Below, in pieces: positions 3,784 to 63,234 of a stretch of 64,000 nucleotides of DNA. A program made the position numbers and the translations under genes. Each line of letters begins with the position of its first letter. Within the stretch, counting starts at the first letter, position 1. Origin of the DNA: a virus (lineage: Duplodnaviria > Caudoviricetes); the IMG/VR virus record IMGVR_UViG_2844571421_000002, positions 13,006 through 77,005 of that record, one strand, 5' to 3'. The notes beneath the pieces are model-generated. The model saw only the letters and a list, made by a program, of their open reading frames with translations. It was not told the DNA's origin and made no database searches.

Positions 3784-3814
3784 GTAAATGCGTGCGACTT
3801 CTGCGGATGGCTCA
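3784..3814 (-). promoter_or_regulatory. 31-bp phage motif upstream of protease/capsid operon
   Basis: TGAGCCATCCGCAGAAGTCGCACGCATTTAC, 8 nt from CATTTA to ATG. Confidence 0.75.
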
Positions 3815-5170
3815 GCCGTCCTTCGTCGCCTCGGCATGCGCTTCCGCCGAGCTGCCCTCAACGGGCGTCGGCGTCTCTCCGGGCTCGTTGGGCTTCTGCC
3901 CCGGCAGCAGCTCCGCGAAGCCTTGCCGCTCCGGGTGAGGCTTGAACCCCGCTTCGACTCGCCACTCGTCGAAGGTGAAGGCGCTCGGGAGCGTCCCCAT
4001 CACCCGCAGCCGGTGCTCACGGTCGGCAGGCACGGGAGAGTCGTAGGAGAGAAGCACGTCGTCTTCGAAGCGGGGCGCCAGGTGCTTTTGCATCGACGCG
4101 AGGAAGACTTCGGCGCGCGGCTTCGTCGCCTGTTCGGCAAGGTGCTCGCGCGCTGCGTAGCTGGTCGCCTTGTTGCTGCTCGTCACGTCGCCCACAATCT
4201 CCGGCGGCACCCGGTAGACCATCCGCACGAAGTCCATGAGGAAGCGGCGCAGGTCGACGAGCTGCATGTCGCGGAAGGGCGTGTCGAGCCGGGCAAACGT
4301 CGTCCGGCCGCTCGTAATCATCACCCGGCCTGCGTTGGCGGGGCCCCCGTACTCACGCGCAAGCGATTCCTTGAAGGCCCTCGCGGGCCCGGCCTGAGAC
4401 TCGTTGAAGCCCTCAATCGCGATGACGGCGCCCGGAAGCATGTTGTTGAAGAAGGCGTTCTTTGTGAAGCGCGCCGCGTGCTCGTCGGTGTCGACCTCGT
4501 CGCCCAGGGCGTATGCGATGCCGATACCGCGGCCGAGTGGGTCAGCCGGGTTCAGACGCTTCACGAAGATGACGCTCGCCGCAGGGAGGAGGAACGTCCG
4601 TCCGCCAGCGGCCACCGTGTAAGTGCGCTCGGACTTCGGCTTGCTCAAATCTGGAAGCGCGAGGACGCAATCGGGCGGCACGGGCCACAGGCCCACGGGC
4701 ACGCCCGCCAGCTCTTCGACGACGGCGAAGAACTCGCCCGTCAGGTCGTAGTGCAGACAGAAGAGCTTCGCGAAGTCGCGGCCCGTCATGTAGTCGTTCG
4801 GGTCCGCCAGCAGCCGCAACAGGGGATGGTCGGGCAGCTCCACCGCGCCCCCCGTCTCGACGAGCGACTTCAACCGCTCCCGGCGAATGTCGCCACAGGC
4901 CCGCCGCAGCGACACGTCGACGAGCGTCTTCCGCGTCGTGGGGTCCTGCCGCGTGAAGGCCCGCCACGTCACGTCCGCGAAGGCATCGCCCACCGTGTCG
5001 ACGATAGTGCCGAGCCACGGCATCTCGGCGTAGGCCGCGAGCAGCGCGGGCACCTCCCGACGCGGCGGGGCCGACGCCCAACGGCTCAGCTCCAGCCCCG
5101 TTCCCTTGCGCTTGCCGCTACCGCGAAGCGCGGCGCGCATCCTGTCCAACATCCCCATGGAGAACCTCAC
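3812..5170 (-). CDS. Portal protein (HK97 family)
   Basis: NPADPLGRGIG, FFNNMLPGAVI, GGPANAG, VYRVPPEIVG motifs; lies between terL and protease. Confidence 0.9.
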   Translation of the reverse strand: MRFSMGMLDRMRAALRGSGKRKGTGLELSRWASAPPRREVPALLAAYAEMPWLGTIVDTVGDAFADVTWRAFTRQDPTTRKTLVDVSLRRACGDIRRERLKSLVETGGAVELPDHPLLRLLADPNDYMTGRDFAKLFCLHYDLTGEFFAVVEELAGVPVGLWPVPPDCVLALPDLSKPKSERTYTVAAGGRTFLLPAASVIFVKRLNPADPLGRGIGIAYALGDEVDTDEHAARFTKNAFFNNMLPGAVIAIEGFNESQAGPARAFKESLAREYGGPANAGRVMITSGRTTFARLDTPFRDMQLVDLRRFLMDFVRMVYRVPPEIVGDVTSSNKATSYAAREHLAEQATKPRAEVFLASMQKHLAPRFEDDVLLSYDSPVPADREHRLRVMGTLPSAFTFDEWRVEAGFKPHPERQGFAELLPGQKPNEPGETPTPVEGSSAEAHAEATKDG

Positions 5171-6582
5171 ACCGCGAAGAACTGTTCGACGAAGACCAGG
5201 TCATGCACGCCCCAGCAGAAGGCGTCGGCCCTGTCATCCCTTCGGCCGTTAATCCCCGTGAATTTGCTGAGCTGCGCTTCCAGCTTCGGGAAGGTGCCGA
5301 CGAACTCGACGCGGCCCGCTTCGGCCAGGGCGGACACCGGCTCGGCACGCTTGCTCTTCGCGCTCGTCGCCCGCACGGGCTTCACGTTGACGCTCACGCC
5401 CATTTCCCCGGCAACGGTGCTGATGAGCGTCTCCACCATCTCCCCGCCCGTGTTCACCTCGACGACGAGCGCGTCACAGGCCCATTCGAGATAGGCCCGA
5501 ATGGCCGTCGTCGCCCACTCGCGGGGACTGGCCCGGCGCGACAGGTCGGCCAGGACCGAAACCCGCTTGAGCGGGACACCGTCGGCCCCGAAGAGCGCGC
5601 TCGACTTGCAGCCTTCGACGATGATGCCCGTTTCGTCCGAGCCAGTTTCGCTCGTTGGGCTTGGGTCCACGCTGACGATGCGCCTGTCGAGCTGCTGCGC
5701 GTACTCGTGCGGGTCGGCGTCGACACGGCCCCACTTCGCCGAGCCAAAGATGGCCCCAGGCACGTCGAAGAGCAGGCGGCCGAGAACCTCTTGCTGCCCC
5801 CAGCGGGTGTTCGCCAGCGCCCGCATGTTCGCCACGGCCGACGGTGCCAGGTTCGCCGCGTTGCTGAGTGAAGAGCCCGTGCGAAGCACCACGCCCGGCT
5901 TGAGTTCCTGCGTCTCCGCGTTCGCGAAGAGCAGTTCTTCAATCTTCTTCAGCGGGCGCGGCGTCCCCGTCAGAAGGAGCTGCGGCGGGTCCTCTCGCGA
6001 GCCGATGCGCAACACGAGCGGGAGCTGATCGACCGCGGCCATGTCGTGTTTCCAGCTCGCAGGCTCGTCGCCCCAGCCCCATCCTGCATTCGGGCCGCGC
6101 AGCCGGTCGGGCTTATCCGCCGAGTAGCAGATGGCATAGACGCCGTTGGGCCACGTCACCCGGCGCTTGCTGGGCTCGTACTTGGGGGTAAACCAGGGGG
6201 GCGACAGGGCGAGGATGCCGGACGCGCCGCGAATCATGGTGTCGCGCACGTCTGCCGCAGTCGGGCCGATGAGGGCTCCGACGCTCTTCGCCTGCCACGC
6301 CTTTTTGATGACCCAACGCGCGCCGCACCACGTCTTCCCGAAGCCGCGCCCGGCCATGACGAAGCACGTCGAGAACTTGTCCGGGGGCGACTGCTCGCGA
6401 CGCGCCCAGAAGTCGAGGTCGTAAACGAGCAGCTCGACTTCCTTGTCGTCGAGCCCACCGAAGAGCTTCGCGAGCTGAGCGCGGGAACCGGCCGTTTGCA
6501 CCATCCGGGATGCGGGGGACTCGTGCGGCGCGAGCCCCTCGGCGAACTTCCCCCATGCGCCCTTCGACAGAAGGCTACGCAT
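5167..6582 (-). CDS. terL: Terminase large subunit
   Basis: Walker A GRGFGKT, Walker B WGWGDE, LLTGTP, nuclease VSVDPS..SDETG..DDRADA. Confidence 0.92.
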   Translation of the reverse strand: MRSLLSKGAWGKFAEGLAPHESPASRMVQTAGSRAQLAKLFGGLDDKEVELLVYDLDFWARREQSPPDKFSTCFVMAGRGFGKTWCGARWVIKKAWQAKSVGALIGPTAADVRDTMIRGASGILALSPPWFTPKYEPSKRRVTWPNGVYAICYSADKPDRLRGPNAGWGWGDEPASWKHDMAAVDQLPLVLRIGSREDPPQLLLTGTPRPLKKIEELLFANAETQELKPGVVLRTGSSLSNAANLAPSAVANMRALANTRWGQQEVLGRLLFDVPGAIFGSAKWGRVDADPHEYAQQLDRRIVSVDPSPTSETGSDETGIIVEGCKSSALFGADGVPLKRVSVLADLSRRASPREWATTAIRAYLEWACDALVVEVNTGGEMVETLISTVAGEMGVSVNVKPVRATSAKSKRAEPVSALAEAGRVEFVGTFPKLEAQLSKFTGINGRRDDRADAFCWGVHDLVFVEQFFAV

Positions 6583-7051
6583 CGCTGGCCCCCTTGTCCT
6601 CGAGTTGCTCGGACGGCGCCGCTTCGGCAGGCGGGGACGCTGGCGGCTCGTCCGGGAGGAACTTCCCCAGCCGGTCAATCAGTAGCTCGCGCAGCGCGGC
6701 AGTGTCGGCGGCCTGGTCCTCGGGGCTCTTCGCCTCGACGTTGTCGCGTCGGCCGTACAGCTCCGGGAAGCGGCGGCTCAAGAGCCACTGGACGTGCTTC
6801 GGGTTCGTCGTCGCGGCGGCCTGGAGAGTCTCTGTCGCCCCCTGCATGAACTCCGCTTCAGCCCGGTTCACCGCGACGAAGAACTCGCGGTAGAGCCCGC
6901 GCGCCTCGCTCGCGCCCCGGTGAAACCAACGGGAAACGGTCTGCTCGTCGACGCCTACGAGGCCCGCAGCCGCTCGACGGAAGAGGCCCGAGCGCAAGTG
7001 CTCGCAGATCTGCTGTTGAAGCTCAGGAGTGAGTTTGGTTGGTCGCGCCAC
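6575..7051 (-). CDS. terS: Terminase small subunit
   Basis: MARPTKLTPE N-terminus, HTH-like segment, WLLSRRFPELYG; overlaps terL start. Confidence 0.72.
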   Translation of the reverse strand: MARPTKLTPELQQQICEHLRSGLFRRAAAGLVGVDEQTVSRWFHRGASEARGLYREFFVAVNRAEAEFMQGATETLQAAATTNPKHVQWLLSRRFPELYGRRDNVEAKSPEDQAADTAALRELLIDRLGKFLPDEPPASPPAEAAPSEQLEDKGASDA

Positions 7052-7056: not shown

Positions 7057-7087
7057 GTAAATGCGTGCGGTTTCGCGAAGTTTTTCA
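7057..7087 (-). promoter_or_regulatory. 31-bp phage motif upstream of terS
   Basis: ..GAAACCGCACGCATTTAC, 6 nt before GTG; upstream box degenerate. Confidence 0.7.
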
Positions 7088-7260: not shown

Positions 7261-7650
7261 ATGACCAAGTGGGCGAAGTGGAAACAGCGAGCACAAGAAC
7301 TCAAGCGCGAAACGGTGGTGCTCGTCATTGCCATGCGGCGCCCAGACGTGCCATGGCATGCGAAGTTGCTGGCCGCGCTGGTGGTGGCTTATGCGTTCAG
7401 CCCCATCGACCTCATCCCGGACTTCATCCCCGTCTTGGGCTATCTGGATGATTTGGTCCTGCTCCCGCTGGGCATTCTCCTCGTGCGAAGGCTCATCCCG
7501 CCGGCCGTCCTAGAGGAGTGCCGGGCGCAGGTTCAACGCGAGGAGGGCCGGAAGAAAACAAGCTGGGCGGCAGCCATTGTCATTATCCTGTTGTGGGTTT
7601 CACTGGGCATGTTCCTCGTCCGCTGGTGGCTGCACCGCCATCACGCATAG
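7261..7650 (+). CDS. YkvA/DUF1232-family membrane protein (cargo)
   Basis: PWHAK..AYAFSPIDLIPDFIPVLGYLDDL signature. Confidence 0.82.
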   Translation: MTKWAKWKQRAQELKRETVVLVIAMRRPDVPWHAKLLAALVVAYAFSPIDLIPDFIPVLGYLDDLVLLPLGILLVRRLIPPAVLEECRAQVQREEGRKKTSWAAAIVIILLWVSLGMFLVRWWLHRHHA

Positions 7651-7777: not shown

Positions 7778-8074
7778 TCACTTGGCAATGATGCGTGCGT
7801 CACATGCCTGCACATCTGCACACCACGCCCGCCAGCGTCGCTGCCATGCCCCATCATCAGTGAGCCGCTCGTCGACCGTTAGCTCGCCGTGCCCACGTAA
7901 TAGGCGCAGGCCGCACAGGTCACACGGCATCGCGTACAGGTTCCGCCGTCGCGTCGCCTCCACGTCCGCGCATGCCATGTGACGAGCGCCAGTCGCGCGC
8001 TCGTAGGTGATGACCTCCCCTCGATCGATAGCGAGTGAGCACACGGCACAGGGGGAGCATCGCGAAGCCAGCAT
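7778..8074 (-). CDS. Small Cys/His-rich (Zn-binding) protein
   Basis: CxxC..HxxC and CxxC..C..C motifs; conserved at 49935-50243. Confidence 0.5.
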   Translation of the reverse strand: MLASRCSPCAVCSLAIDRGEVITYERATGARHMACADVEATRRRNLYAMPCDLCGLRLLRGHGELTVDERLTDDGAWQRRWRAWCADVQACDARIIAK

Positions 8075-8084: not shown

Positions 8085-8915
8085 CTACTGGTCCTGTCTG
8101 ACGAGCACCTCGCGCAGCTCAGCCAGCGCACGCGCGAGCATCCGGTCGACGCGACTCTTCGGCGCGCCCCATGCTTCCGCCACGGAGCGCACCGACTGCG
8201 CCGGGCGGTTGAGACCGAAGACGCGTGAAACAAGCTCCCGCTGCTCAGTGGCCAGCCGTCGCACGGCGTCGAACACGAGGGCTCGTCGCTCAGCCGCCAG
8301 CAACTTTGCCTCTGGCGTCTCTTCGTCGGCGTCCAGGCACGACATCTCGCGGAGTGCGGATTCCAACTCGTCGACCCATGAGGCATCGGCCGAAGCACCG
8401 TCCGAAAAATGAGACGGTATGTCCATGCGGTGGACTCGGACGACGTTGCGTTCGTTGCTACGGATTGAACGCACGGTGCGACGCTTGTGCCCGCCGTCGC
8501 TCAGGTGAACGTCGGTGCCGTGCAAGCGCGCGTACTGTTCGCAAGCAGCCCGCGCCCGGAAGTAGGCAACCTGGCCGAACGACTGGCGCCCCCTCGTGGC
8601 GTCGTACTTGGACACCGCGCGAAGCACCGCCATGGCGGCAACTTGCGCGAGGTCATCAGGCGACAGCGAGCCCGCGATGGGCAAGAGGGCCCCGACGATG
8701 CACCGGATGAGGGGTCTCATGGAGTCGATCAACTCAGCGGACAACCGTCGCTCCAGCACTGCGTTGCCGCCCGCGCGGGCCGACAGGATGCGGGACACGA
8801 GTTCGGATTGCCGGGCCGCCCGAAGGCCATACTCACCGTGTGAAACATGCTTTTTCGCACTACCCTTGCGACAAATGGCTGCGTGAGACATCGCCCCGAC
8901 AGGAGCATGCCGCAT
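8085..8915 (-). CDS. Phage sigma-70 family factor (start uncertain; open frame extends to 9152)
   Basis: Region 2 DDLAQVAAMAVLRAVSKYDATRG..F..AYF; region 4 HTH SVRSVAEAWGAPKSRVDRMLARAL. Confidence 0.88.
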   Translation of the reverse strand: MRHAPVGAMSHAAICRKGSAKKHVSHGEYGLRAARQSELVSRILSARAGGNAVLERRLSAELIDSMRPLIRCIVGALLPIAGSLSPDDLAQVAAMAVLRAVSKYDATRGRQSFGQVAYFRARAACEQYARLHGTDVHLSDGGHKRRTVRSIRSNERNVVRVHRMDIPSHFSDGASADASWVDELESALREMSCLDADEETPEAKLLAAERRALVFDAVRRLATEQRELVSRVFGLNRPAQSVRSVAEAWGAPKSRVDRMLARALAELREVLVRQDQ

Positions 8916-9020: not shown

Positions 9021-9482
9021 GTAAATGCGTGTGGAATCCGTCAGCGGCTCACGCACGCTCGAAAGTGGCGGAGAAGGCGAGTCGGCATGCCCCGAGTAGA
9101 TGCGTGCGACTTCCGTGAACGGCGCAGGCATCAACGCCCCGTCATCAATCAAGCTCTCTTCCTATCCTCTCTCCTTCTTCTCTTTAGAAAAGATGGAGTA
9201 GTAGAAAGGAGGATAGGTAATAGAGAAGGCTAAGGATTTGGGGAACGCGCATTGGTGCCGCATGACGCCGGACGCCCTGACGCGACGCCTGAGCCATTCG
9301 CGAAATCCGCACTCATTTACCAGCGGCGGCGCGCACCACCTGCCGCATCCGCCCGGCTGACGATTCCGTGGGCCATTCGGAAAATCCGCACCCATTTACA
9401 GGGTGCCATGCACGTACCCCACACGCCTCCCGCCTCCATCGCACGCCTCACTGAGCCACTCGCAGAATCCGCACCCATTTAC
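9021..9482. repeat. Divergent array of five 31-bp motifs (9021-9051 and 9096-9126 on minus; 9290-9320, 9369-9399 and 9452-9482 on plus)
   Basis: Read directly; 75-83 bp periodicity; flanks an AT-rich tract. Confidence 0.85.
9127..9243. other. Candidate replication origin / cis-element (pyrimidine tract followed by purine tract)
   Basis: Identical to 51285-51401; CCTATCCT/AGGATAGG inverted repeat; upstream of primase. Confidence 0.5.
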
Positions 9483-11807
9483 CCAGGCATGAGCCACACG
9501 CCCGACACCACGCGCCTGCGCGTCCTTCGGCTGAAGGTCGCCTTCTACGCGTCCGCCCAGGACAACATCCCCCAGGCCGCTGAGCTGTCGTGGCCCGAAC
9601 TGTCAGCGAAACTCGTCTCACACCGTCGGAGTCAGTGCCCGACGTCGCCCTGTCCGCGAGGCTGCCCCGGCAAGAATGGCCCCGCATGGAGCCCTGTGGA
9701 CATCGTCGAGCGACGCCGCTCGGAGAACGTGCGCGCTGTCACGGTGGCGGTGTTCGACCTGGACCACCTCAACGCGCAACAGCTCTCGTTCCTCGACGCC
9801 GTCGAGCGCAACGGACTGGCCTATGCCCTCCACTCGACGCACAGCAACCGCCCGCCCGACGACTACTGCCTGCGGCTCGCCATGCCGCTGTCTCGGGCCG
9901 TCCTGCCCCGGGAATGGGCTTCGGTGCGCGAGGCGGCCATCCGCATGCTCAACTTTCCGGCCGACCCGGCAACGAAGGACTTGGCGCGCATCTACTACCT
10001 GCCCGACGCGCCCACGGGTGCGGAGCCCTACGCGGCCAGTGGAGACGGAGCGCCCCTCGACGTCGACGCGCTGCTCGCCATGTCCCGGGCTGGACTCCCC
10101 ACGATGGCGCCCCTGGTGCCGTCCGCGAAGCCCGAGGAACCAGCCGACCTGTACGGGCTGCGGGCCCTACTGCGGCGCATCCGCAAACCCGAGCACCTCG
10201 CCATCGTCCGCCGAGCCCTTGCCGGTGAGTCCCTGGCCCCCGTCGGCGAGCAGGACACGACACTGAACACGCTCATGTCGTGCGCCGCCTTCGTCCTGCC
10301 GCTGTCCACGCCCGAGGCCGTCGTCATTGAGCTGTTCCGCGCGTCCTTCGCTGCAACGGACTGGCAGGACGGGACGGAGCACCTGTGCGAGCAGGCCCTC
10401 TTGAAGCTGCGGCGTCACCGGGAGCGCCGGAAGGCTCGTGACGCGGGGCGGCTCGCCGACAACACGGCCATCTGGGAAGCCCTGGGCAGTCGCCCTCCTG
10501 ATCCCGCGTCGAGCGACGGGCCGGGATTCGAGGAGGACGCTCCCGACCCCGATGCGTGGATGAAGGAACTCTTCCTCGACATCACGAAGGACACCCGACG
10601 GCAGATTCGAAACTGTGAAGCGAACGTCGCCATCGTCCTCGGCAAGTCGCCCGAGTGGCGCGGCGTCTTCCGCTTCAACGAGGTCACGAAGAAGTTGGAG
10701 GTGGAGGGCGGCCCGCTCGGCCCCAACGTGGACATTGAGACGCTCGACGTCCTGGTGGCCAACTGGATTCAGCTCAGCAAGTACGGGCGGCTCGGGCTGA
10801 TGCCGAAGGCGCACATCGTCGCGCAGCAGCTCCTCGCCGTCGCGAAGCGCAACAGCTATGACCCGGTCGCCGACTACCTCGCGGGACTCGTCTGGGATGG
10901 AACGCCACGGCTCGACGGGATGCTCGCGACGTACTTCAGCGCCCAGGGGGATGCTCGATACCTCCGGGCCGTCGGCGCGAAGTTCGCCATCTCGGCGGTT
11001 GCGCGTGCCTTGCGCCCCGGGTGCAAGGTCGACACGGTGATGATTCTGGAGGGGCCGCAGGGCCTGCGAAAGTCGACGGCGTTCAGCATCCTGGGAGGCC
11101 GGTACTTCAGCGACGCGCCCATCGACGTCACCAGCAGGGACAGCGCCATGCTCGCCTCTCAGTTCTGGTTCATCGAACTGGCGGAACTGAGCACGTTTCG
11201 CAAGAGCGAGGACCAGGCGCTCAAGGCGTTCATCACCCGGACGGAGGACACCTACCGGCCGCCCTACGGACGCTCCAACGTGCAGGCCCCGCGACGCTGC
11301 GTCTTCGTCGGCACAACCAACGATGACGACTACCTGCGCGACCCCACGGGACAGAGGCGCTTCTGGCCGGTGAAGTGCAGCCGCATCGACACCGACGCCC
11401 TCAAGCGCGACCGCGACCAAATCTGGGCCGAAGCCGTCGTGCGCTTCCACCAGGGTGAGGACTGGTGGCTGAGCAACGAGGAAGCGGCCGGAGCCGAGCA
11501 GCAGGCCGCGCTTCGGATGGAGAACGTGGGGGACAGCCGCAAGGAGGTCATCCTGCGGTGGATTCTGGAGATGCCACCCGAAAAGCGACCCTCGGACGTG
11601 ACGCTTCTCCATGTAGGCATCGAAGCTTTCGCGCTCCACCAAGCGCAGGTTGACCACCGGATCTCACGGGAAATCGGCGCGGCCTTGAAGTCGCTGGGCT
11701 TCACCCGGGGCCAGCGCCGAATGGGAGACGGGAAGCGCCCGCTCGTCTACTACGTCCCGGACGAACTAAAGAACGCGCCCATGGAGAAGCGCGGCGAGCG
11801 ACAGTAA
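9408..11807 (+). CDS. Primase-helicase (N-terminal primase + VirE/VapE-family P-loop domain)
   Basis: AVFDLD, HSTHS, DPATKDLARIYYLP; Walker A GPQGLRKST; PRRCVFVGTTN..YL.DPTGQRRFWPV. Confidence 0.87.
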   Translation: MHVPHTPPASIARLTEPLAESAPIYPGMSHTPDTTRLRVLRLKVAFYASAQDNIPQAAELSWPELSAKLVSHRRSQCPTSPCPRGCPGKNGPAWSPVDIVERRRSENVRAVTVAVFDLDHLNAQQLSFLDAVERNGLAYALHSTHSNRPPDDYCLRLAMPLSRAVLPREWASVREAAIRMLNFPADPATKDLARIYYLPDAPTGAEPYAASGDGAPLDVDALLAMSRAGLPTMAPLVPSAKPEEPADLYGLRALLRRIRKPEHLAIVRRALAGESLAPVGEQDTTLNTLMSCAAFVLPLSTPEAVVIELFRASFAATDWQDGTEHLCEQALLKLRRHRERRKARDAGRLADNTAIWEALGSRPPDPASSDGPGFEEDAPDPDAWMKELFLDITKDTRRQIRNCEANVAIVLGKSPEWRGVFRFNEVTKKLEVEGGPLGPNVDIETLDVLVANWIQLSKYGRLGLMPKAHIVAQQLLAVAKRNSYDPVADYLAGLVWDGTPRLDGMLATYFSAQGDARYLRAVGAKFAISAVARALRPGCKVDTVMILEGPQGLRKSTAFSILGGRYFSDAPIDVTSRDSAMLASQFWFIELAELSTFRKSEDQALKAFITRTEDTYRPPYGRSNVQAPRRCVFVGTTNDDDYLRDPTGQRRFWPVKCSRIDTDALKRDRDQIWAEAVVRFHQGEDWWLSNEEAAGAEQQAALRMENVGDSRKEVILRWILEMPPEKRPSDVTLLHVGIEAFALHQAQVDHRISREIGAALKSLGFTRGQRRMGDGKRPLVYYVPDELKNAPMEKRGERQ

Positions 11808-12839: not shown

Positions 12840-12870
12840 CGCGCCACTCCTGAAATCCGCACCCATTTAG
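12840..12870 (+). promoter_or_regulatory. 31-bp phage motif upstream of Cas4-like nuclease
   Basis: GCGCCACTCCTGAAATCCGCACCCATTTAG, 6 nt from CATTTA to GTG. Confidence 0.7.
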
Positions 12871-12875
12871 AGAGG

Positions 12876-18055: not shown

Positions 18056-18086
18056 CGAACCACTCCCAAAATCCGCACGCATTTAC
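18056..18086 (+). promoter_or_regulatory. 31-bp phage motif upstream of SSB-polymerase operon
   Basis: CGAACCACTCCCAAAATCCGCACGCATTTAC followed by GTCAGCG/CGCTGAC hairpin leader. Confidence 0.72.
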
Positions 18087-18755: not shown

Positions 18756-20765
18756 ATGAATGTCTGGTCCTTCGACACGGAAACGTGGCTGATTCAGCCC
18801 GGCTTGCTCGCGCCCCCTCTCGTGTGCGGCAGCATCGCGGCGGCAGCTCCAGGCAGTGAACGACTGCTCGACAAGGCTCAAGCCCGGCAGTTCTTTCGCG
18901 AGGCCATCACCTCACCTGACACGGACCTTGTCGGCGCAAACCTCGCCTACGACCTGGGCGTCATGGCGGCGGATGACCCGAGCCTCGTGGCGCTCATCTT
19001 CGCGGCGCTCGAAGCCGGCCGCCTGCATTGCGTCCAGGTCCGCGAAGCCCTCATCGACATTGCCCGGGGCCTGTACGGAGTGGACCCGTCGACAGGCCGG
19101 AAGCTCGACGATGACGAAGGCGCCCGCTACCCGCTCGCGCTTCTCGTGCAGCGCCATCTCGGGCTCGACATCAGCGAGGACAAGAAGAACCCGAAGGCAT
19201 GGCGCCTGCGCTACGCGGAACTCGACGGCGTGCCTGTCGAGCGCTGGCCCCAGGATGCGGCCGACTACCCGAAGCGCGACGCTCGCTACACGCTCGACGT
19301 CTTCTACCGGCAGGAAGCCGTAGCCCGGGAGACACCCAACGGCGGCAACCTGCATGCCGAAGCCGAGCAGATGCGCGCCGCCTTCGCGCTCCACCTTGCG
19401 TCCATCTGGGGACTCCGAACGAACGGTGACTCGGTCGCCGTGCTGCGGGAGCGGGTGGAACGGGAGTGGGGAGAGAACCGCGCCAAGTTCCAGGCGGCGG
19501 GCATCTACCGTGAGGATGGCACCAAAGACTCGAAGCGCCTCGCGGCGCTCGTGACTGCCGCCTACGACGGACAGCCGCCCATCACCGCGCCCAGCGACCG
19601 ATTTCCGGACGGCCAGGTCGCGACCGACCGTGACACGCTGCTCGGTTCGGGTGACGCGCTCCTCGAGGACTTGGGCAAGAGCGGGCGCGTCGACAAGTAC
19701 AAGTCGACCTACCTGGACGTCGTGGAAGCGGGCACCTCGCTCCCCATCAATCCGCGATTCAACGTGCTCGTCAGCACCACGCGCGTGTCGAGCGACTACC
19801 AGCAGCTCCCGCAGAAGGGCGGCATCCGTGAGGTCCACGAGGCGCGGCCCGGCTTCGTCTACTGCTCGGTCGACTACGGCGGGCTTGAGCTTCGCACCAT
19901 GGCTCAGCGGGCCATCTGGGAACTCGGCTTCTCGAAGATGGCCGAAGCGCTGAACAGTGGACTCGACGTCCACACCCTTGCCGCGGCTGAATTCCTCGGG
20001 GCGAGCTACGACGAGCTGCTTCCGAAGGTGAAGGCGAAAGAGCCCCTCGCGGTCGCCTTCCGCCAGCTCGCGAAGATTCTCAACTTCGGCAAGGGCGGCG
20101 GGATGACGGGCGGCTCGCTCGTCTACAACGCACGCGCGAAGGACCGGGTTTCCTTCTGCCTGCTGGCGAAGCGCGCAGACGTCTGCGGCATCGAGCGCGT
20201 CGTCATCACCGTGCAGCGCCAGCCGAAGATGGTCTGCCGGGCCTGCGTCGAAGTCGCCAAGGAACTGGACACGAAGTGGCTCAATGCGTGGCCCGAGCAG
20301 CGCGAGCTACAGCACCGGGCGAAGTCACGCACCTACGGGCGCGGGTTTGCCGACGTGATGATTCCGGGGGCCAACATCCTGCGCGGTGGGTGCGGCTACA
20401 CTCAGATTCTCAACACCCCATTCCAGGGGCTCGGCGCTGTCGGGTGCAAGCTCGCCATGTGGCGCGTCAGCCGCGAGATGTACGTCGACCGCCGCTCGCC
20501 GCTCTACGGCTCGCGACTCGTCCTCATGGTGCATGACGAGCTGATTAGCGAGCTACTCGCCGATGACGCCCAGCGGATGCACGACGCCGCCGAGCGCAAG
20601 GCGTACCTGATGCGCGAGGCGATGAAGGAGACGACTCCCGACCTGGCACCGGCAATCGAAGCCGAGCCCGCGCTGTCTCGCATCATGTCGAAGGACGTCG
20701 CCACCGTGCGCGATAGCTCCGAGCGGCTGCTCGTCTGGGAGCCACCAACAAAGCGCGCTGCCTGA
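18756..20765 (+). CDS. polA: Family A DNA polymerase with 3'-5' exonuclease
   Basis: ExoI FDTET, ExoII ANLAYD; motif A DYGGLELR, motif B RQLAKILNFG, motif C VHDE. Confidence 0.93.
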   Translation: MNVWSFDTETWLIQPGLLAPPLVCGSIAAAAPGSERLLDKAQARQFFREAITSPDTDLVGANLAYDLGVMAADDPSLVALIFAALEAGRLHCVQVREALIDIARGLYGVDPSTGRKLDDDEGARYPLALLVQRHLGLDISEDKKNPKAWRLRYAELDGVPVERWPQDAADYPKRDARYTLDVFYRQEAVARETPNGGNLHAEAEQMRAAFALHLASIWGLRTNGDSVAVLRERVEREWGENRAKFQAAGIYREDGTKDSKRLAALVTAAYDGQPPITAPSDRFPDGQVATDRDTLLGSGDALLEDLGKSGRVDKYKSTYLDVVEAGTSLPINPRFNVLVSTTRVSSDYQQLPQKGGIREVHEARPGFVYCSVDYGGLELRTMAQRAIWELGFSKMAEALNSGLDVHTLAAAEFLGASYDELLPKVKAKEPLAVAFRQLAKILNFGKGGGMTGGSLVYNARAKDRVSFCLLAKRADVCGIERVVITVQRQPKMVCRACVEVAKELDTKWLNAWPEQRELQHRAKSRTYGRGFADVMIPGANILRGGCGYTQILNTPFQGLGAVGCKLAMWRVSREMYVDRRSPLYGSRLVLMVHDELISELLADDAQRMHDAAERKAYLMREAMKETTPDLAPAIEAEPALSRIMSKDVATVRDSSERLLVWEPPTKRAA

Positions 20766-20813
20766 ACCACGGCCGAAATCCGCACCCATTTAGGGAGCAC
20801 ACGCACTCCCTAA
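20763..20813 (+). promoter_or_regulatory. 31-bp phage motif plus overlapping TTAGGGAG/CTCCCTAA hairpin
   Basis: Read directly; repeated at 63204-63254. Confidence 0.7.
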
Positions 20814-29101: not shown

Positions 29102-29132
29102 GTAAATGCGTGCGACTTCAGAGCGTGGCCCA
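29102..29132 (-). promoter_or_regulatory. 31-bp phage motif upstream of lysis cassette
   Basis: TGGGCCACGCTCTGAAGTCGCACGCATTTAC. Confidence 0.72.
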
Positions 29133-30733: not shown

Positions 30734-30764
30734 GTAAATGCGTGCGACTTCTGGAAATGACCCG
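30734..30764 (-). promoter_or_regulatory. 31-bp phage motif (duplicated lysis promoter)
   Basis: GGGTCATTTCCAGAAGTCGCACGCATTTAC. Confidence 0.68.
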
Positions 30765-40492: not shown

Positions 40493-40523
40493 GTAAATGC
40501 GTGCGCTTTCTCGCCGTGGCTCA
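40493..40523 (-). promoter_or_regulatory. 31-bp phage motif upstream of tail operon
   Basis: TGAGCCACGGCGAGAAAGCGCACGCATTTAC, 9 nt from CATTTA to ATG. Confidence 0.75.
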
Positions 40524-44941: not shown

Positions 44942-44972
44942 GTAAATGCGTGCGACTTCTGCGGATGGCTCA
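44942..44972 (-). promoter_or_regulatory. 31-bp phage motif upstream of protease
   Basis: Same as 3784-3814; 8 nt to ATG. Confidence 0.75.
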
Positions 44973-48209: not shown

Positions 48210-48500
48210 ACCCGGTAAATGCGTGCGGTTTCGCGAAGTTTTTCGGGGGAGCGCTCAACAAAACGCATCGACCCCACGTTTTTTCTCAGAATTTTTCGAA
48301 AGTGGGGGCGCTCCGAGCAAGCCGGAATTCCGCCAGTGAAAGGAAATCCACGCCGGGGGGCGGACAACAAAGCCCAGATATGCACATCTGCCCAGATCTA
48401 CCTACGTCTGCCGACACAGCCCCTCGCAGCAACCCGCAAAGCTAGACGCCCGCTCTTTAACCTTACGTAAAAGCGTCCCAGCGGATACTCTTGATCTCCT

Positions 48501-48845: not shown

Positions 48846-48872
48846 AGATCGAGTTTCAGATACGCCTGGACC

Positions 48873-49934: not shown

Positions 49935-50243
49935 CTATCCACGGGACGTGATTCGGACGTCACATGCTTGCACGTCGACGCAGCGAGCCCGCCAGCTTCG
50001 ACGCCACGATCCGCCGTCCGTTAGACGCTCGTCGACTGCCAGCTCGCCTTGCCCTCGTAGTAGGCGCACGCCGCAAAGGTCGCACGGCATCGGGTACAGG
50101 TTGCGCCGCCAAGCTGCCTCGCGTTCTAAGCAGGCCAAGTGCCGAGCCCCGACGGTGCGCTCGTAGGTGGTGACCTTGCCCGGCTCAATGGGAAGGGAGC
50201 ACGCGGCACACGGTACGCGCCTCTTAGCGGTCAGGGTGGGCAG
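49935..50243 (-). CDS. Small Zn-binding protein (start unclear)
   Basis: Homolog of 7778-8074; open frame up to the sigma stop, no ATG at the equivalent position. Confidence 0.42.
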   Translation of the reverse strand: MPTLTAKRRVPCAACSLPIEPGKVTTYERTVGARHLACLEREAAWRRNLYPMPCDLCGVRLLRGQGELAVDERLTDGGSWRRSWRARCVDVQACDVRITSRG

Positions 50244-50244
50244 C

Positions 50245-51075
50245 TCAGCTCCCCCGCTCGCCCAGCATCAGGCGCAGGTCGGCTAGAGCACGCGCGAGCA
50301 TCCGGTCGACGCGACTCTTCGGCGCGCCCCATGCTTCCGCCACGGAGCGCACCGACTGCGCCGGGCGGTTGAGGCCGAACACGCGGGACACCAGCTCTCG
50401 TTGCTCGGGAGACAACTGCCGCACGGCCTTGAACACGAGGGCTCGACGCTCAGCCGCCAGCAGCTCCGCCTCGGGAGTGTCCCCGTCGGGCTCCAGGCAC
50501 GACATCTCGCGGAGTGCGGATTCCAACTCGTCGACCCACGAGTCATCGGCGGAAGCACCGTCCGAGAAATGAGACGGTATGTCCATGCGGTGGACTCGGA
50601 CGACGTTGCGTTCGTTGCTGTGGATTGAACGCACGGTGCGACGCTTGTGCGCGCCGTCGCTCAGGTGAACGTCGGTGCCGTGCAAGCGCGCGTACTGCTC
50701 GCAGGCAGCCCGCGCCCGGAAGTAGGCAACCTGACCGAACGAATGGCGCCCCCTCGTGGCGTCGTACTTGGACACCGCGCGAAGCACCGCCATGGAGGCA
50801 ACTTGTGCGAGGTCATCAGGCGACAACGAGCCCGCGATGGGCAAGAGGGCCCCGACGATGCGGCGGATGATGGGCCTCATGGAGATGAGCAACTCAGCGG
50901 ACAGTCGTCGCTCCAGCACGGCGTTGCCGCTCGCGCGGGCCGACAGGATGCGGGGCACGAGTTCGGATTGCCGAGCCGCCTGAAGGCCATACTCACTGTG
51001 TGAAACATGTTTTTTCGCACTTCCCTTGCGACAAATGGCTGCGTGAGACATCGCCCCAACAAGAGCATGCCGCAT
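50245..51075 (-). CDS. Phage sigma-70 family factor (start uncertain; frame open to 51246)
   Basis: Homolog of 8085-8915. Confidence 0.88.
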   Translation of the reverse strand: MRHALVGAMSHAAICRKGSAKKHVSHSEYGLQAARQSELVPRILSARASGNAVLERRLSAELLISMRPIIRRIVGALLPIAGSLSPDDLAQVASMAVLRAVSKYDATRGRHSFGQVAYFRARAACEQYARLHGTDVHLSDGAHKRRTVRSIHSNERNVVRVHRMDIPSHFSDGASADDSWVDELESALREMSCLEPDGDTPEAELLAAERRALVFKAVRQLSPEQRELVSRVFGLNRPAQSVRSVAEAWGAPKSRVDRMLARALADLRLMLGERGS

Positions 51076-51177: not shown

Positions 51178-51633
51178 GTAAATGCGTGTGGATTCCGGCA
51201 GCGGCTCACGCACTCTCGAAAAGTGGCGACGAAGGCGAGTCGGCATGTCCCGAGTAGATGCGTGCGACTTCCGCGAACGACTCAGGCATCAACGCCCCGT
51301 CATCAATCAAGCTCTCTTCCTATCCTCTCTCCTTCTTCTCTTTAGAAAAGATGGAGTAGTAGAAAGGAGGATAGGTAATAGAGAAGGCTAAGGATTTGGG
51401 GGAACGCGCTCCAGTGCCGCCTGACGCCCCGCCGCGACAGCCGAGCCATTCGCGAAATCCGCACTCGTTTACCAGGGACGGCACGACTACCTGCCGCATC
51501 CGCCCGGCTGACGATTCCGTGGGCCATTCGGAAAATCCGCACCCATTTACCGGATGCCATGCACGCACCCCACACGCCTCCCGCCTCCGTCGCACGCCTC
51601 GCTGAGCCATTCACAGAATCCGCACTCATTTAC
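51178..51633. repeat. Divergent array of five 31-bp motifs around the conserved tract 51285-51401
   Basis: 51178-51208 and 51254-51284 (minus); 51442-51472, 51520-51550 and 51603-51633 (plus). Confidence 0.85.
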
Positions 51634-53967: not shown

Positions 53968-54147
53968 GCCACCTCGCGCGCGTGAATGGCTTACAAAGCA
54001 ACTCTAGCGCACCAGCCTATTCCAACAACTCCCAATAACGTCACATCGGACTCTCGCCCTCGACGGCTGCACCATGTTATTGCGCCACCTCTGTGCTGAC
54101 AGCTTCAGGGGATGTAAGCGCAAAATCGGGGATGCACGATGGCACGC

Positions 54148-55137: not shown

Positions 55138-55223
55138 GATGTGCCCTGCCTTTCAGGTGTACTCAGGATTAGTACCAGTGTGCCACAATCGACCTATGTA
55201 GGAACGTGTCCAGAAGCACCGCG

Positions 55224-55593: not shown

Positions 55594-55623
55594 GCGTGCG
55601 GGGACTCTGAATCGAACGACGCC

Positions 55624-55654
55624 TGAACCACTCTCAGAGTCCACACCCATTTAG
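55624..55654 (+). promoter_or_regulatory. 31-bp phage motif upstream of Cas4-like nuclease
   Basis: TGAACCACTCTCAGAGTCCACACCCATTTAG, 6 nt to GTG. Confidence 0.7.
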
Positions 55655-55659
55655 GGAGG

Positions 55660-56985
55660 GTGACGCCTTCCCGCCACGCTCTCAGCCCCCCCTCGGTCAT
55701 TGCCGGGGTCATCCAGCGGTTGAGCGCCTCCCAGCTCAAGCGCCACAAGCTTTGTCCGCGCGCATGGTTCTTCCAGAAGGTCATGCGCGTCCCCGAGCCC
55801 AGCACGGGAGCGCAGCAGGTCGGCACCGAAGGACACGCCCAGCTTGAGCATTTCCTTGCGACGGGCGAAGACGTGCTGGGCACGTTCGCGAAGGCGGGCG
55901 CCCATCTCCTGCCCACGCCCGGCGCTGACTTGCTCGTCGAACAGCCCCTCGACGGTGAGCCGCCACTGACGGCGGGAGGCATCCCCTTCACCGGATTCAT
56001 CGACCTCGTAGACGCTCGACGGCTCGCCTCTGACGGCGTCCTTCGCATCACCGACCACAAGTTCACCAGCAACGTCGCGTCGAATGCCGCGAGCGCCGAG
56101 CAGCTCGCCGACGCCGACACCGAACCCGGGTTGCAGATGGTCGGCTATGGCGCGTGGGCGCTCAGCCAGGTTGAGCGATTCCCGGGGCTGCGCACGCTGG
56201 AGCTTGAACACCTCTACTACCAGACCCGGGGACAACGCCTTGCCGCGTCCGTCGTCGTCACGGTGCCCGCCGAGCACGTCGAGCGCGAGTGGCAGACAAA
56301 GGTCGAGCCCCAGGTCGAAGCGATGAAGGAGCACGCGCAAGCCGCCCGCGCTTCCGACGTGCCCGCGAACTACGGCCCCGCCTGCGGCAAGTACGGCGGA
56401 TGTCCGTTCATGGCGAAGTGCCTCACAGGAGAGAACAAGACGATGTCCCTGCGCGACAAGCTGCTCAACAAGGCTTCCGAGTCCGCCCCCCTTACCGTTG
56501 CCGCGGTCGAGCGCAACGCCCCGGAGCTGCCCGCCGTTCTACCCCCGGACGCGCCCGCCCCTACCCCAGTGCAGACGGCTCCAGAGGTCGCCCAAGCCAC
56601 TGAGCAGCCCGCGCCGAAGCGTCGCGGTCGCCCTCGCAAGGTGGCCGAGTCCGAGCAGCCCAAGGGCGAGATGCGCGTGCTCTTCGTCGACTGCATCCCG
56701 ACGACCTTCGACGGACCGACGCCCGAGTCGCTTACGAGCTACGTCGACACCATGCATCGCAAGGTGGCGGAAGCGGGCGGTGTCGACGACGTGCGATTCG
56801 CGGGCTCCGACTCGGCGCTCGGATTCGGCAAGTGGCGAGGGGCGCTGGCCATGGCGGCGCGCGCCGAGCTGCCCCCGCCCGGCGCCTACTTCGCGCTCGG
56901 GGTCGCCCAGTCGGAGCTGATGCAGGTCATCGTCGAGGCGCTCGAACCGGCGTTCGACGTGGTCGTTCGCGGCACTCGTTCCTGA
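55660..56985 (+). CDS. Cas4/AddB-like exonuclease with AT-hook extension
   Basis: Homolog of 12876-14201. Confidence 0.8.
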   Translation: MTPSRHALSPPSVIAGVIQRLSASQLKRHKLCPRAWFFQKVMRVPEPSTGAQQVGTEGHAQLEHFLATGEDVLGTFAKAGAHLLPTPGADLLVEQPLDGEPPLTAGGIPFTGFIDLVDARRLASDGVLRITDHKFTSNVASNAASAEQLADADTEPGLQMVGYGAWALSQVERFPGLRTLELEHLYYQTRGQRLAASVVVTVPAEHVEREWQTKVEPQVEAMKEHAQAARASDVPANYGPACGKYGGCPFMAKCLTGENKTMSLRDKLLNKASESAPLTVAAVERNAPELPAVLPPDAPAPTPVQTAPEVAQATEQPAPKRRGRPRKVAESEQPKGEMRVLFVDCIPTTFDGPTPESLTSYVDTMHRKVAEAGGVDDVRFAGSDSALGFGKWRGALAMAARAELPPPGAYFALGVAQSELMQVIVEALEPAFDVVVRGTRS

Positions 56986-60496: not shown

Positions 60497-60527
60497 TGGT
60501 CCACTCCCAGAATCCGCACGCATTTAC
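60497..60527 (+). promoter_or_regulatory. 31-bp phage motif upstream of SSB-polymerase operon
   Basis: GGTCCACTCCCAGAATCCGCACGCATTTAC. Confidence 0.7.
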
Positions 60528-61196: not shown

Positions 61197-63206
61197 ATGA
61201 ATGTCTGGTCCTTCGACACGGAAACGTGGCTGATTCAGCCCGGCTTGCTCGCGCCCCCTCTCGTGTGCGGCAGCATCGCGGCGGCAGCTCCAGGCAGCGA
61301 ACGACTGCTGGACAAGGCCCAAGCCCGGCAGTTCTTTCGCGAGGCCATCGCCGCGCCTGACACGCACCTCGTTGGCGCGAATCTCCCCTACGACCTGGGA
61401 GTTATGGCGGCCGACGACACGAGCCTTGTTGCGCTCATCTTCGCGGCGCTCGAAGCCGGCCGACTGCATTGTGTCCAGGTCCGCGAAGCCCTCATCGACA
61501 TCGCTCGGGGGCTCTACGGTGTGGACCCTTCCACGGGCCGGAAGCTCGACGATGACGAAGGCGCCCGCTACCCGCTCGCGCTTCTCGTGCAGCGTCATCT
61601 CGGGCTCGACATCAGCGAGGACAAGAAGAACCCGAAGGCATGGCGCCTGCGCTACGCGGAACTCGACGGCGTGCCTGTCGAGCGCTGGCCGACGGAAGCC
61701 GCTGCGTACCCGAAGCGAGATGCCCGCTACACACTCGACGTCTTCTTCCGGCAGGAAGCCATAGCCCGGGAGACACCCAACGGCGGCAACCTGCATGCCG
61801 AAGCCGAGCAGATGCGCGCCGCCTTCGCGCTCCACCTCGCTTCCATCTGGGGACTTCGAACGAACGGTGACTCGGTCGCCGTGCTGCGGGAGCGGGTGGA
61901 ACGGGAGTGGGGAGAGAACCGGGCCAAGTTCCAGGCGGCGGGCATCTACCGTGAGGATGGCACCAAAGACTCGAAGCGCCTCGCCGCGCTCGTGACTGCC
62001 GCCTATGACGGACAGCCGCCTATTACCGCGCCCAGCGACCGATTCCCCGATGGCCAGGTCGCGACCGACCGTGACACGTTGCTCGGTTCGGGCGACGCGT
62101 TGCTTGAGGACTTGGGCAAGAGCGGACGCGTCGACAAGTACAAGTCGACTTACCTGGACGTCGTCGAAGCGGGCACCTCGCTCCCCATCAATCCGCGCTT
62201 CAACGTGCTCGTCAGCACCACGCGCGTTTCGAGCGACTACCAGCAGCTCCCGCAGAAGGGCGGCATCCGGGAGGTCCACGAGGCCCGTCCCGGCTTCGCC
62301 TACTGCTCGGTCGACTACGGCGGGCTTGAGCTTCGCACCATGGCTCAGCGGGCCATCTGGGAACTCGGCTTCTCGAAGATGGCCGAAGCGCTGAACAGCG
62401 GGCTCGACGTCCACACCCTTGCCGCGGCCGAATTCCTCGGGGCGAGCTACGACGAGCTGCTTCCGAAGGTGAAGGCGAAAGAGCCCCACGCGGTCGCATT
62501 CCGGCAGCTCGCGAAGATTCTCAACTTCGGCAAGGGCGGCGGGATGACGGGCGGCTCGCTCGTCTACAACGCCCGTGCGAAGGACCGGGTTTCCTTCTGC
62601 CTCCTGGCGAAGCGCGCAGACGTGTGCGGCGTCGAGCGCGTCGTCGTCACCGTGCAGCGCAAGCCGAAGATGGTCTGCCGGGCCTGCGTCGAGGTCGCGA
62701 AGGAGCTGGACACGAAGTGGCTCAACGCGTGGCCCGAGCAGCGCGAGCTACAGCAGCGAGCGAAGTCGCGCACCTACGGGGGCGGGTTCGCCGATGTGAT
62801 GATTCCGGGCGCGAACATCCTGCGCGGCGGGTGCGGCTACACGCAGATTCTCAACACGCCATTCCAGGGGCTCGGCGCTGTTGGGTGCAAGCTCGCCATG
62901 TGGCGCGTCAGCCGCGAGAGGTACGTCGACCGTCGCTCGCCGCTCTACGGCTCGCGACTCGTCCTCATGGTGCATGACGAGCTGATTAGCGAGCTGCTCG
63001 CCAATGACGCCCAGCGGATGCACGACGCCGCCGAGCGCAAGGCGTACCTGATGCGCGAGGCGATGAAGGAGACGACTCCCGACCTGGCACCGGCAATCGA
63101 AGCCGAGCCCGCGCTGTCTCGCATCATGTCGAAGGACGTCGCCACCGTGCGCAACAGCTCCGGGCGGCTGCTCGTCTGGGAGCCACCCACAAAGCGCGCT
63201 GCCTGA
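61197..63206 (+). CDS. polA: Family A DNA polymerase
   Basis: Homolog of 18756-20765. Confidence 0.93.
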   Translation: MNVWSFDTETWLIQPGLLAPPLVCGSIAAAAPGSERLLDKAQARQFFREAIAAPDTHLVGANLPYDLGVMAADDTSLVALIFAALEAGRLHCVQVREALIDIARGLYGVDPSTGRKLDDDEGARYPLALLVQRHLGLDISEDKKNPKAWRLRYAELDGVPVERWPTEAAAYPKRDARYTLDVFFRQEAIARETPNGGNLHAEAEQMRAAFALHLASIWGLRTNGDSVAVLRERVEREWGENRAKFQAAGIYREDGTKDSKRLAALVTAAYDGQPPITAPSDRFPDGQVATDRDTLLGSGDALLEDLGKSGRVDKYKSTYLDVVEAGTSLPINPRFNVLVSTTRVSSDYQQLPQKGGIREVHEARPGFAYCSVDYGGLELRTMAQRAIWELGFSKMAEALNSGLDVHTLAAAEFLGASYDELLPKVKAKEPHAVAFRQLAKILNFGKGGGMTGGSLVYNARAKDRVSFCLLAKRADVCGVERVVVTVQRKPKMVCRACVEVAKELDTKWLNAWPEQRELQQRAKSRTYGGGFADVMIPGANILRGGCGYTQILNTPFQGLGAVGCKLAMWRVSRERYVDRRSPLYGSRLVLMVHDELISELLANDAQRMHDAAERKAYLMREAMKETTPDLAPAIEAEPALSRIMSKDVATVRNSSGRLLVWEPPTKRAA

Positions 63207-63234
63207 ACCACGGCCGAAATCCGCACCCATTTAG
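63204..63234 (+). promoter_or_regulatory. 31-bp phage motif after polA
   Basis: Identical to 20763-20793. Confidence 0.7.

Follow-up and report, generated by a model that had tools for sequence, protein, structure and literature searches.

A 31-bp DNA motif recurs 23 times in the window analysed here, a 64,000-nucleotide stretch of a Caudoviricetes provirus (bases 13006-77005 of the 77,005-bp IMG/VR provirus record IMGVR_UViG_2844571421_000002), and it is probably the promoter recognised by a sigma factor which the prophage itself encodes. A first-pass annotation, made from the sequence alone, had proposed such a bipartite promoter read by the prophage's own sigma factor. Comparison with related genomes supports this proposal by the canonical geometry of a -35 box, a 17-bp spacer and a -10 box, by the confinement of the motif to prophages, by its co-occurrence with the sigma gene, and by a change in the motif which is linked to the sigma clade. 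From these sequences we infer the sigma factor as the reader of the motif, the positions of the transcription starts and the leaderless nature of the mRNAs.

Self-comparison showed that the window holds two related prophage units in tandem (units A and B), which are offset by about 41 kb and 89-95% identical over most of their length, with low-GC variable cargo genes between the conserved blocks of both. Unit B continues past the end of the record. Each unit is composed of two divergent arms. The leftward arm carries the genes for the sigma factor, small and large terminase, portal, prohead protease, capsid, tail and lysis, and the rightward arm carries those for a VapE-type primase-helicase, PD-(D/E)XK nuclease, helicase, family-A DNA polymerase and integrase. 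Close relatives of the sigma factor occur in the genomes of several Myxococcus species, and genes of DUF2381 and of Ser/Thr kinases, which are typical of myxobacteria, are present in the window. Both observations indicate that the prophage host is Myxococcus.

Layout of the motif and its distance to start codons

All 23 copies listed in the first-pass annotation were recovered at their positions and on their strands. The consensus written for them fared less well: its sites were correct, but the string omits several bases and matches nothing when searched literally. The revised consensus is TGAGCCAYTCNCNGAANYCGCACNCATTTAC, 31 bp in length, with no insertions or deletions. A position weight matrix was made from the 23 window sites themselves and scanned over the whole 77-kb record, where it recovered these sites and two more in the 13 kb upstream of the window. 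All of the resulting 25 sites scored at least 35 bits and nothing scored between 5 and 35 bits, while the controls (reversed sequence and five Markov resamples) gave no match above 10 bits. The fixed interval of 18 nt between GARCC (positions 2-6) and CATTTA (positions 25-30) that had been reported holds true at every site. When the first box is read as GAGCCA (positions 2-7), the spacer to CATTTA is 17 nt at 25/25 record sites.

The motif is oriented with transcription, as had been noticed: every one of the 25 sites in the record points the same way as the next gene, and the orientation rule of the divergent arms is also obeyed by 149 sites in 17 related proviruses. Gene assignments made site by site agree with the view that the motif precedes packaging, head, tail, lysis and replication operons. 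The TGA of the motif doubles as the stop codon of the upstream gene at the junctions of portal and protease, of the head-tail gene and the first tail gene, and of the polymerase and the next open reading frame (ORF), three kinds in all. Start codons had been placed 6-9 nt after CATTTA, and long-frame starts were indeed found 5-8 nt past the last motif base at 14 of the 23 window sites, which make up 7 kinds of junction. No Rfam family overlapped the motif sites.

The anatomy of the motif was derived from 222 non-redundant sites of related prophages and IMG/VR proviruses. Its conservation has sharp borders at positions 1 and 31 and falls into four blocks, namely TGAGCCA (1-7), (G)AA (14-16), CGCAC (19-23) and CATTTA (25-30). 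The spacer between GAGCCA and CATTTA is 17 bp at all 222 sites, and position 26 is A in 221 of them as well as in 48/48 sites of the variant motif described below. When CATTTA is taken as -12 to -7, GAGCCA comes to lie at -35 to -30 and A26 becomes the -11 adenine. The two boxes, the 17-bp spacer and the A at -11 fit the bipartite promoter layout of the sigma-70 family, for which an optimal spacing of 17 +/- 1 bp is cited in PMC12340547.

The distance from the motif to the next start codon is narrowly distributed. The first long-frame start lies 5, 6, 7 or 8 nt past position 31 at 50, 17, 24 and 33 sites, respectively (124/222, 56%), and 9-12 nt past the motif at 0/222 sites. Starts of the 5-nt class are mostly GTG and those of the other classes mostly ATG. 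Given a 6-nt discriminator, the 5-nt distance places the first base of the codon exactly at +1. The remaining 98 sites (44%) keep the full motif and the G-rich tract behind it, but they either have a leader of 13-58 nt or lack a long-frame start in the next 60 nt, and therefore the motif is not tied to translation starts as such. The G-rich tract, weaker than the motif and located at positions 34-37, is seen at leaderless-type and leadered sites alike. The first-pass annotation had seen no room for a Shine-Dalgarno sequence, which is borne out by the absence of a Shine-Dalgarno-like run from the motif and by the G-rich tract touching the start codon. To judge from this spacing, the genes adjoining the motif would be expressed from leaderless or near-leaderless mRNAs, a conclusion which we believe slightly more than we doubt.

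Position 24 (-13) is G at 84% of the sigma/structural-arm sites versus 43% of the replication-arm sites, where C/T prevails (17 related proviruses, L110-L126). This difference may mark a promoter class or serve to tune promoter strength. Downstream of the motif, RNA structure in general shows only a mild enrichment (mean z -0.4 versus +0.25 in controls), and it was therefore not used as evidence. At the nuclease sites (12871-12890 and 55655-55675, and also in L001, L002 and L004) the G-rich tract pairs with the first codons of the gene, with the GTG start in the loop, and the pairing is compensatory across lineages (AGAGGG/CCCTCT versus GGAAGG/CCTTCC) by changes that are synonymous in the protein. 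An internal hairpin of the motif RNA (GCGG/CCGC) was considered and rejected, as the pairing is not kept in other copies and the motif has no internal covarying structure.

The phage sigma factor and its co-occurring motifs

Profile, model and fold matches confirmed that the prophage possesses a sigma factor gene of its own, located behind two motif copies. The ORF gave a weak Pfam match to sigma-70 regions 2 and 4, a match to PHROG 351 (a sigma factor family), a score of 53.1 bits against NCBIfam TIGR02937 (cut-off 42.9), and weak sequence matches to the solved SigA, FliA and RpoS chains. In the AlphaFold2 model, residues 83-190 (sigma2) and 258-332 (sigma4) form confident helical domains, while the linker 192-255 and residues 1-82 are disordered. 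With this model as the query, 50/50 best Foldseek matches were sigma factors. The modelled architecture is sigma2-linker-sigma4 without sigma3 or sigma1.1, as in sigma factors of the extracytoplasmic function (ECF) type (group 4). The family is small, with 52 members among 1.84 billion representatives at E <= 1e-10.

In relatives as in both units, the sigma gene is preceded by two motif copies. In unit A it (8085..8915, minus strand) lies behind a first copy at 9096..9126 and a second at 9021..9051, both on the minus strand, and encodes 276 aa if its start is MRHAPVG. Its counterpart in unit B (50245..51075, minus strand) lies behind minus-strand copies at 51254..51284 (first) and 51178..51208 (second), encodes 276 aa from MRHALVG, and has a frame open up to 51246. 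These starts are 105 nt (unit A) and 102 nt (unit B) past the second copy. The alignment and the structure model suggest that the sigma protein probably begins at MRHA..., about 100 nt after the second motif copy and not 7 nt after the first, because homologues are 268-287 aa long except where annotated shorter, and because the ATG found 7 nt beyond the first copy in unit A does not share the reading frame of the sigma gene. The alternative 333-aa form starting 7 nt after the first motif was rejected as the likely product; its residues 1-82 are not only disordered but also unconserved. The homologues P0002-P0012 are annotated at 219-241 aa, and the alignment and structure model suggest a conserved protein of about 268-276 aa for them.

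A second gene accompanies the sigma gene. In both sigma clades (see below), an ORF of 95-98 aa begins about 10-60 nt after the sigma stop and encodes a Cys/His-rich protein of zinc-binding type with eight invariant residues (C7, C10, H30, C33, C49, C52, C83 and C89). In unit A it has 98 aa (7778..8074, minus strand), begins 10 nt past the sigma stop and is a candidate sigma partner, either an anti-sigma factor or a co-factor. In unit B (49935..50228, minus strand) its 5' end has neither ATG nor GTG nor TTG close by, and for this reason it may be translationally coupled or use another start. Neither Pfam nor PHROG has a family that matched the protein, an anti-sigma family or fold was not recovered either (best Foldseek E = 0.04), and most members of its unnamed ESM Atlas cluster come from Myxococcota. 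By analogy, it could be an anti-sigma factor or a helper like gp79 of phage phiEco32.

For the distribution of the motif in host genomes, the 18-nt core pattern RAANNCRCACNCATYTAS was searched with the reversed core as a control. Three Myxococcus genomes of 9-12 Mb gave 13, 24 and 25 core matches, all of them on few contigs, and 0-1 matches for the control. Among 121 Myxococcaceae genomes, the core was present in 18 and the control in none. In these genomes the matches form clusters of prophage size, whose left-hand sites are on the minus strand and whose right-hand sites are on the plus strand. The first-pass annotation had called the motif private to the phage; in the related genomes it occurs only in prophage-sized clusters, which excludes that it is equally common in host DNA. 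The sigma factor (E <= 1e-10) was found in 11 of the 121 genomes, 9 of which have the motif. Expressed the other way, it was found in 9/18 motif-positive versus 2/103 motif-negative genomes (Fisher p = 2e-7), and all 4 genomes with at least 7 motif sites have it.

The two sigma-positive, motif-negative genomes possess a distant sigma clade (clade 2; 33-39% identity). The surroundings of 13 clade-2 sigma genes contain a variant motif that shares the 31-bp layout, TGRRCCA-N6-GGAA-NN-YGYCC-CCATTGAA, which ends in …GYCCCCATTGAA. It keeps positions 1-7, 14-16, 25-28 and 30, while CAC at 21-23 is replaced by YCC, T at 29 by G, and the base at 31 by A or G. At 26/48 variant sites a start codon follows 5-8 nt on, and the clade-2 sigma gene has one motif copy 100-200 nt upstream. 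The variant core occurs at least twice in 14/401 genomes of the phylum, 11 of which have a clade-2 sigma (Fisher p = 3e-17), and gives 0-1 matches in genomes having the clade-1 sigma only. Genome G003 has both sigma clades, and in it each motif type is found on the contig that carries the corresponding sigma gene. The sigma2 helix that corresponds to regions 2.3/2.4 differs between the clades, FGEVAYFRARTACEQYAR versus FxTWvxWRARRAIMDQIR, which is in line with the motif change in and beside the -10 box.

In one further genome, three variant-core matches of the GAAGAAGCCCCCATTGAG type lie within 900 bp (G112:C1:96568-97443), and neither sigma clade was found in that genome. This cluster may be a third variant or a remnant.

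Proposed mechanism, rival explanations and known systems

In the mechanism that we propose, the divergent two-domain phage sigma factor (sigma2-linker-sigma4, ECF-like) would bind the core RNA polymerase of the host, with its sigma4 domain contacting TGAGCCA (-36 to -30) and its sigma2 domain CATTTA (-12 to -7, with the A at -11), while the conserved AA (-22/-21) and CGCAC (-18 to -14) would provide extra contacts to sigma or to the small zinc protein. One promoter class would head both divergent arms and recur inside operons, thereby serving the sigma gene (two copies), replication (three copies), the nuclease/helicase, polymerase and integrase operons, and the packaging, head, tail and lysis genes. 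Since two copies stand before the sigma gene, positive feedback is proposed. Transcription would start 6-9 nt after CATTTA. At more than half of the sites this point coincides with the ATG or GTG or falls 1-3 nt ahead of it, and the mRNAs of these sites would have no leader and would be translated independently of a Shine-Dalgarno sequence.

Other polymerase signals were considered and rejected. The GG and GC dinucleotides are not at the spacing required of a sigma-54 promoter, as judged by eye. For a promoter of the host primary sigma factor, the boxes fit TTGACA at 3/6 and TATAAT at 2/6 positions, without the T at -7. A T7-type polymerase promoter was dismissed since no T7-type polymerase gene was found in the record, although the negative result for T7-type RNA polymerase (PF00940) in the 77-kb record is weak because the control genomes of that search gave none either. 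No sigma-70-consensus promoter was found in 47500-56000, a region that includes the control region of unit B.

Several points weigh against a promoter read by the phage sigma factor. Invariant spacer bases such as AA and CGCAC are unusual for promoters of the sigma-70 type, and GTG, the main start codon at the 5-nt sites, works poorly as a leaderless start in E. coli. In many cases the G-rich tract pairs with a C-rich tract further downstream, and such a structure would form only in RNA that starts at or before the motif end, or in read-through RNA. The zinc-type protein is as conserved as the sigma factor and co-varies with the clade, and the reader of the motif is therefore not assignable to sigma alone. 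Finally, neither the first switching-on of the sigma factor nor its silencing in the lysogen is accounted for.

It is conceivable, although we doubt it, that the whole temperate life cycle is run from this one private promoter class by a self-activating sigma factor. The lysogeny switch would then be a bistable sigma loop and not a CI/Cro pair, restrained by the zinc protein in the role of an anti-sigma factor or a gatekeeper, perhaps together with the palindromic centre of the control region. Through the leaderless messages, translation would be coupled to initiation at these promoters, and the two clade/motif pairs would be natural orthogonal pairs that let related prophages coexist without cross-induction.

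The first-pass annotation had offered the mycobacteriophage stoperators and start-associated sequences as an alternative by analogy. Cluster A stoperators and Cluster K start-associated sequences are 13-17 bp long and have no -35/-10 layout; they either bind the immunity repressor or include a Shine-Dalgarno sequence, and those of Cluster K sit just before start codons. The likeness extends to the many asymmetric copies in short intergenic gaps that are co-oriented with transcription. It ends at the site itself, which is a bipartite 31 bp instead of 13-14 bp, lacks a Shine-Dalgarno-like run, abuts a start in only 56% of cases and, unlike stoperators, co-varies with a sigma factor; moreover, no repressor of the helix-turn-helix or CI type was seen among the scanned ORFs. 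If the motif were nevertheless a stoperator-like operator, a phage repressor, possibly the zinc protein, would bind each copy and block transcription through it in the lysogen, and the promoters would lie elsewhere. We regard this as unlikely. The co-oriented copies, with clusters of two and three at the divergent control region, would suit an operator, the zinc protein does co-vary with the motif variant, and the lack of a CI-type repressor among about 45 ORFs scanned requires another route of silencing. However, an operator needs neither a two-box geometry nor a 17-bp spacer nor an A at -11, it leaves the fixed 5-8 nt to the start codons unexplained, the control region of unit B shows no sigma-70-like promoter that could feed the arms, and the zinc protein has no significant fold match, DNA-binding or otherwise.

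The zinc protein also figures in a second rival explanation, by which the motif is a promoter whose specificity comes mainly from that protein, acting as an activator or as a second sigma subunit together with the phage or a host sigma factor. The proximity of its gene to sigma in both clades and its eight invariant Cys/His positions would agree with such a role, and the conserved spacer AA and CGCAC need a reader. Precedent exists in phiEco32, where the open complex is stabilised by gp79, a small protein that binds the sigma factor gp36 of this phage (PMC12276001), and the zinc protein could be compared with this pair or with the zinc-finger late activators of the Ogr type. Even so, this explanation seems improbable to us: no fold or family match of the protein indicates DNA binding, the motif boxes sit at the positions bound by sigma4 and sigma2, and the position of its gene is typical of an anti-sigma factor too. 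A role of the motif in RNA, as a Shine-Dalgarno substitute (start-associated sequence), a translation-factor site or a processing mark in polycistronic transcripts, is more improbable still, and we give it very little credence. It would draw on the tight distance to start codons, on copies that fill the entire stop-to-start gap with the motif TGA as the stop, on the purine-rich tract after the motif, and on the covarying hairpins that contain the start codon at the nuclease sites. Yet the 98 sites away from start codons, among them each arm's first copy and the sites with leaders of 20-58 nt, retain the motif in full. The motif also lacks an internal covarying structure and any Rfam match, the purine tract abuts the start codon too closely for Shine-Dalgarno pairing, and the unit B control region has no sigma-70-like promoter for such RNAs. 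Nor does a role in RNA give a reason for the co-variation with sigma.

Phage sigma factors with private promoters are known from SPO1, T4 and PBSX, and both phage sigma regulons and leaderless phage promoters are already known kinds. Xpf of B. subtilis PBSX is a sigma-like late-gene activator of a defective phage. The RinA/ArpU family comprises sigma-like late-gene activators of temperate phages (PMC3152322). As in these cases, a temperate element would here use its own sigma-like factor for the packaging, head, tail and lysis genes. Xpf and RinA/ArpU, however, act at one or few late promoters and under a CI/Xre-type repressor, whereas here there are about 12 putative promoters per genome, including those of replication and of the factor's own gene, and a CI/Xre-type repressor was not found among the scanned ORFs.

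The predicted system also resembles that of gp36 of phiEco32, a divergent two-domain phage sigma which works on the host core polymerase, recognises phage-specific promoters via sigma2-/sigma4-like domains and has a small phage partner (PMC12276001). In contrast to phiEco32, which is lytic, leaves its early genes to the host sigma-70 and uses a short AATGTA box centred at -11.5 (PMC12276001), the present prophage is temperate and has a 31-bp, four-block signal before early and late genes and the sigma's own gene. No sequence relationship of the myxophage sigma to gp36 was seen, and DNA and protein comparison with deposited phage genomes gave no match.

With ECF (group 4) sigma factors, the phage protein shares the sigma2-linker-sigma4 architecture, a TIGR02937 score above the cut-off, a GA(A/G)CC-like first box, a target motif before its own gene, and a small zinc-binding-type protein encoded directly after it. 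It differs in a linker of about 65 residues, in a second box that is CATTTA rather than CGT-like, and in a regulon that would be the whole phage genome. The zinc-type protein likewise departs from ECF anti-sigma factors, as it has neither the HxxxCxxC signature nor a transmembrane segment. For leaderless expression, Thermus phage phiYS40 is reportedly a related case of a -10 box adjoining ORFs, in work attributed to Sevostyanova in 2007. Leaderless expression from a -10 box that adjoins the ORF was demonstrated experimentally in Deinococcus (PMC12340547). As in the leaderless promoters of Deinococcus-Thermus, a -10-like box of the motif stands a few bases ahead of the start codon. The Deinococcus-Thermus promoters mostly consist of the -10 box alone and are recognised by the primary sigma factor of the host (PMC12340547), whereas here a full bipartite signal, apparently that of a phage sigma, is found in Myxococcota.

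The sigma family and the motif both appear undescribed. Neither such a sigma factor nor such a motif is mentioned in the searched literature on Myxococcus phages and Mx alpha, nor did any transcription signals for these prophages turn up in it. An identity of these prophages with Mx alpha, whose units are described as about 80 kb in size, was considered as a possibility. New here, provided that the link between promoter and sigma factor is real, which we think likely, are a long four-block promoter of a small sigma family that heads essentially all operons of a temperate phage, including that of the sigma itself, and a natural second sigma/promoter pair. A promoter map of a Myxococcus prophage family is thus obtained that is complete and readable from the sequence alone. 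With replication, packaging, head, tail, lysis, integrase and regulator genes all apparently dependent on one phage sigma, it is to be asked how lysogeny is kept without a classical repressor. The two matched sigma/promoter pairs could serve as orthogonal expression tools in myxobacteria, and the prophages offer a clean system for leaderless translation outside actinobacteria and Deinococcus-Thermus.

Site map and minor observations

In the leftward arm of unit A, the copy at 3784..3814 (minus strand) contributes its TGA as the portal stop, and an ATG 7 nt on opens the prohead protease gene (2943-3776), which is followed by the capsid gene. The corresponding copy of unit B, at 44942..44972 (minus), has the same portal stop and a protease start 7 nt on. 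A small-terminase-like gene (6575-7051), after which come the large terminase and portal genes, is opened by a GTG 5 nt past the copy at 7057..7087 (minus), whose first box is deviant (TGAAAAAC). Its unit B counterpart is 48215..48245 (minus), where a GTG again opens the small terminase gene 5 nt on. Both small-terminase sites keep the deviant first box GAAAAAC, and the matching site of the second clade (G301) is deviant too; this may be a deliberately weak or late promoter.

Three further leftward copies lie in the window. At 40493..40523 (minus), the TGA is the stop of the gene 40521-40949, and an ATG 8 nt on opens a 138-aa ORF heading the tail genes. The copy at 29102..29132 (minus) precedes, with a 29-nt leader, the lysis cassette of unit B, which consists of a 95-aa ORF and then an endolysin-like gene (28255-28788). 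A copy at 30734..30764 (minus) lies in a duplicate of this lysis-promoter segment and is followed by a 28-nt leader and a 157-aa ORF. The duplicated segments (28736-29119 and 30369-30751, 85% identity) stand around an AbiTii gene, after which a second AbiTii gene follows.

Three tandem copies on the plus strand head each replication arm. In unit A, the first is at 9290..9320. The second (9369..9399) has an ATG 8 nt on which is in frame with the primase-helicase (799-aa form), and the third (9452..9482) has an ATG 6 nt on which opens the VapE-type primase-helicase gene (9489-11807). In unit B, the first (51442..51472) has CGTTTA instead of CATTTA, the second (51520..51550) is followed by an ATG 8 nt on, and the third (51603..51633) by an ATG 6 nt on that opens the primase-helicase gene (51640-53967). 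In four lineages, an in-frame interval of 81 nt separates the start that follows the second copy from the one that follows the third (9408-9491 and 51559-51642 in the window), and for this reason the primase-helicase could be made as two nested forms, each with its own promoter.

Further along the rightward arms, all on the plus strand, the copies at 12840..12870 (unit A) and 55624..55654 (unit B) are each followed 5 nt on by a GTG that opens the nuclease gene (12876-14201, the PD-(D/E)XK nuclease followed by the helicase, and 55660-56985, respectively). The copy at 18056..18086 has a 55-nt leader with a hairpin and stands before a 176-aa ORF and the family-A DNA polymerase gene; its unit B counterpart, 60497..60527, has a 55-nt leader as well. 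The TGA of the copy at 20763..20793 is the polymerase stop, and a 60-aa ORF, a 186-aa ORF and the integrase gene come after it. The counterpart at 63204..63234 in unit B overlaps the polymerase stop. The integrase gene at the end of unit A (21762-22994) adjoins a tRNA-Leu gene (23011-23096).

Between the two arms of unit B lies the low-GC centre of the divergent control region (51285..51441), which contains an imperfect inverted repeat with arms of 22 nt (51319-51340 / 51354-51375). In unit A, the centre corresponds to 9127-9289 and the repeat to about 9161-9217. One arm of the repeat is CT-rich and the other AG-rich, the arms are 77% complementary, and the repeat occurs three times in a relative from M. 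dinghuensis (L002). The control-region centres of other relatives have different sequences in the same style. The repeat may be a switch-setting site, or an origin.

Other genes in the cargo slots are an Mrr-like nuclease (54148-55137), a HATPase/Shedu-like gene (16177-17943) and a DUF1232 gene (7261-7650). Like the AbiTii genes, they are all low in GC and all lie just upstream of a motif copy.

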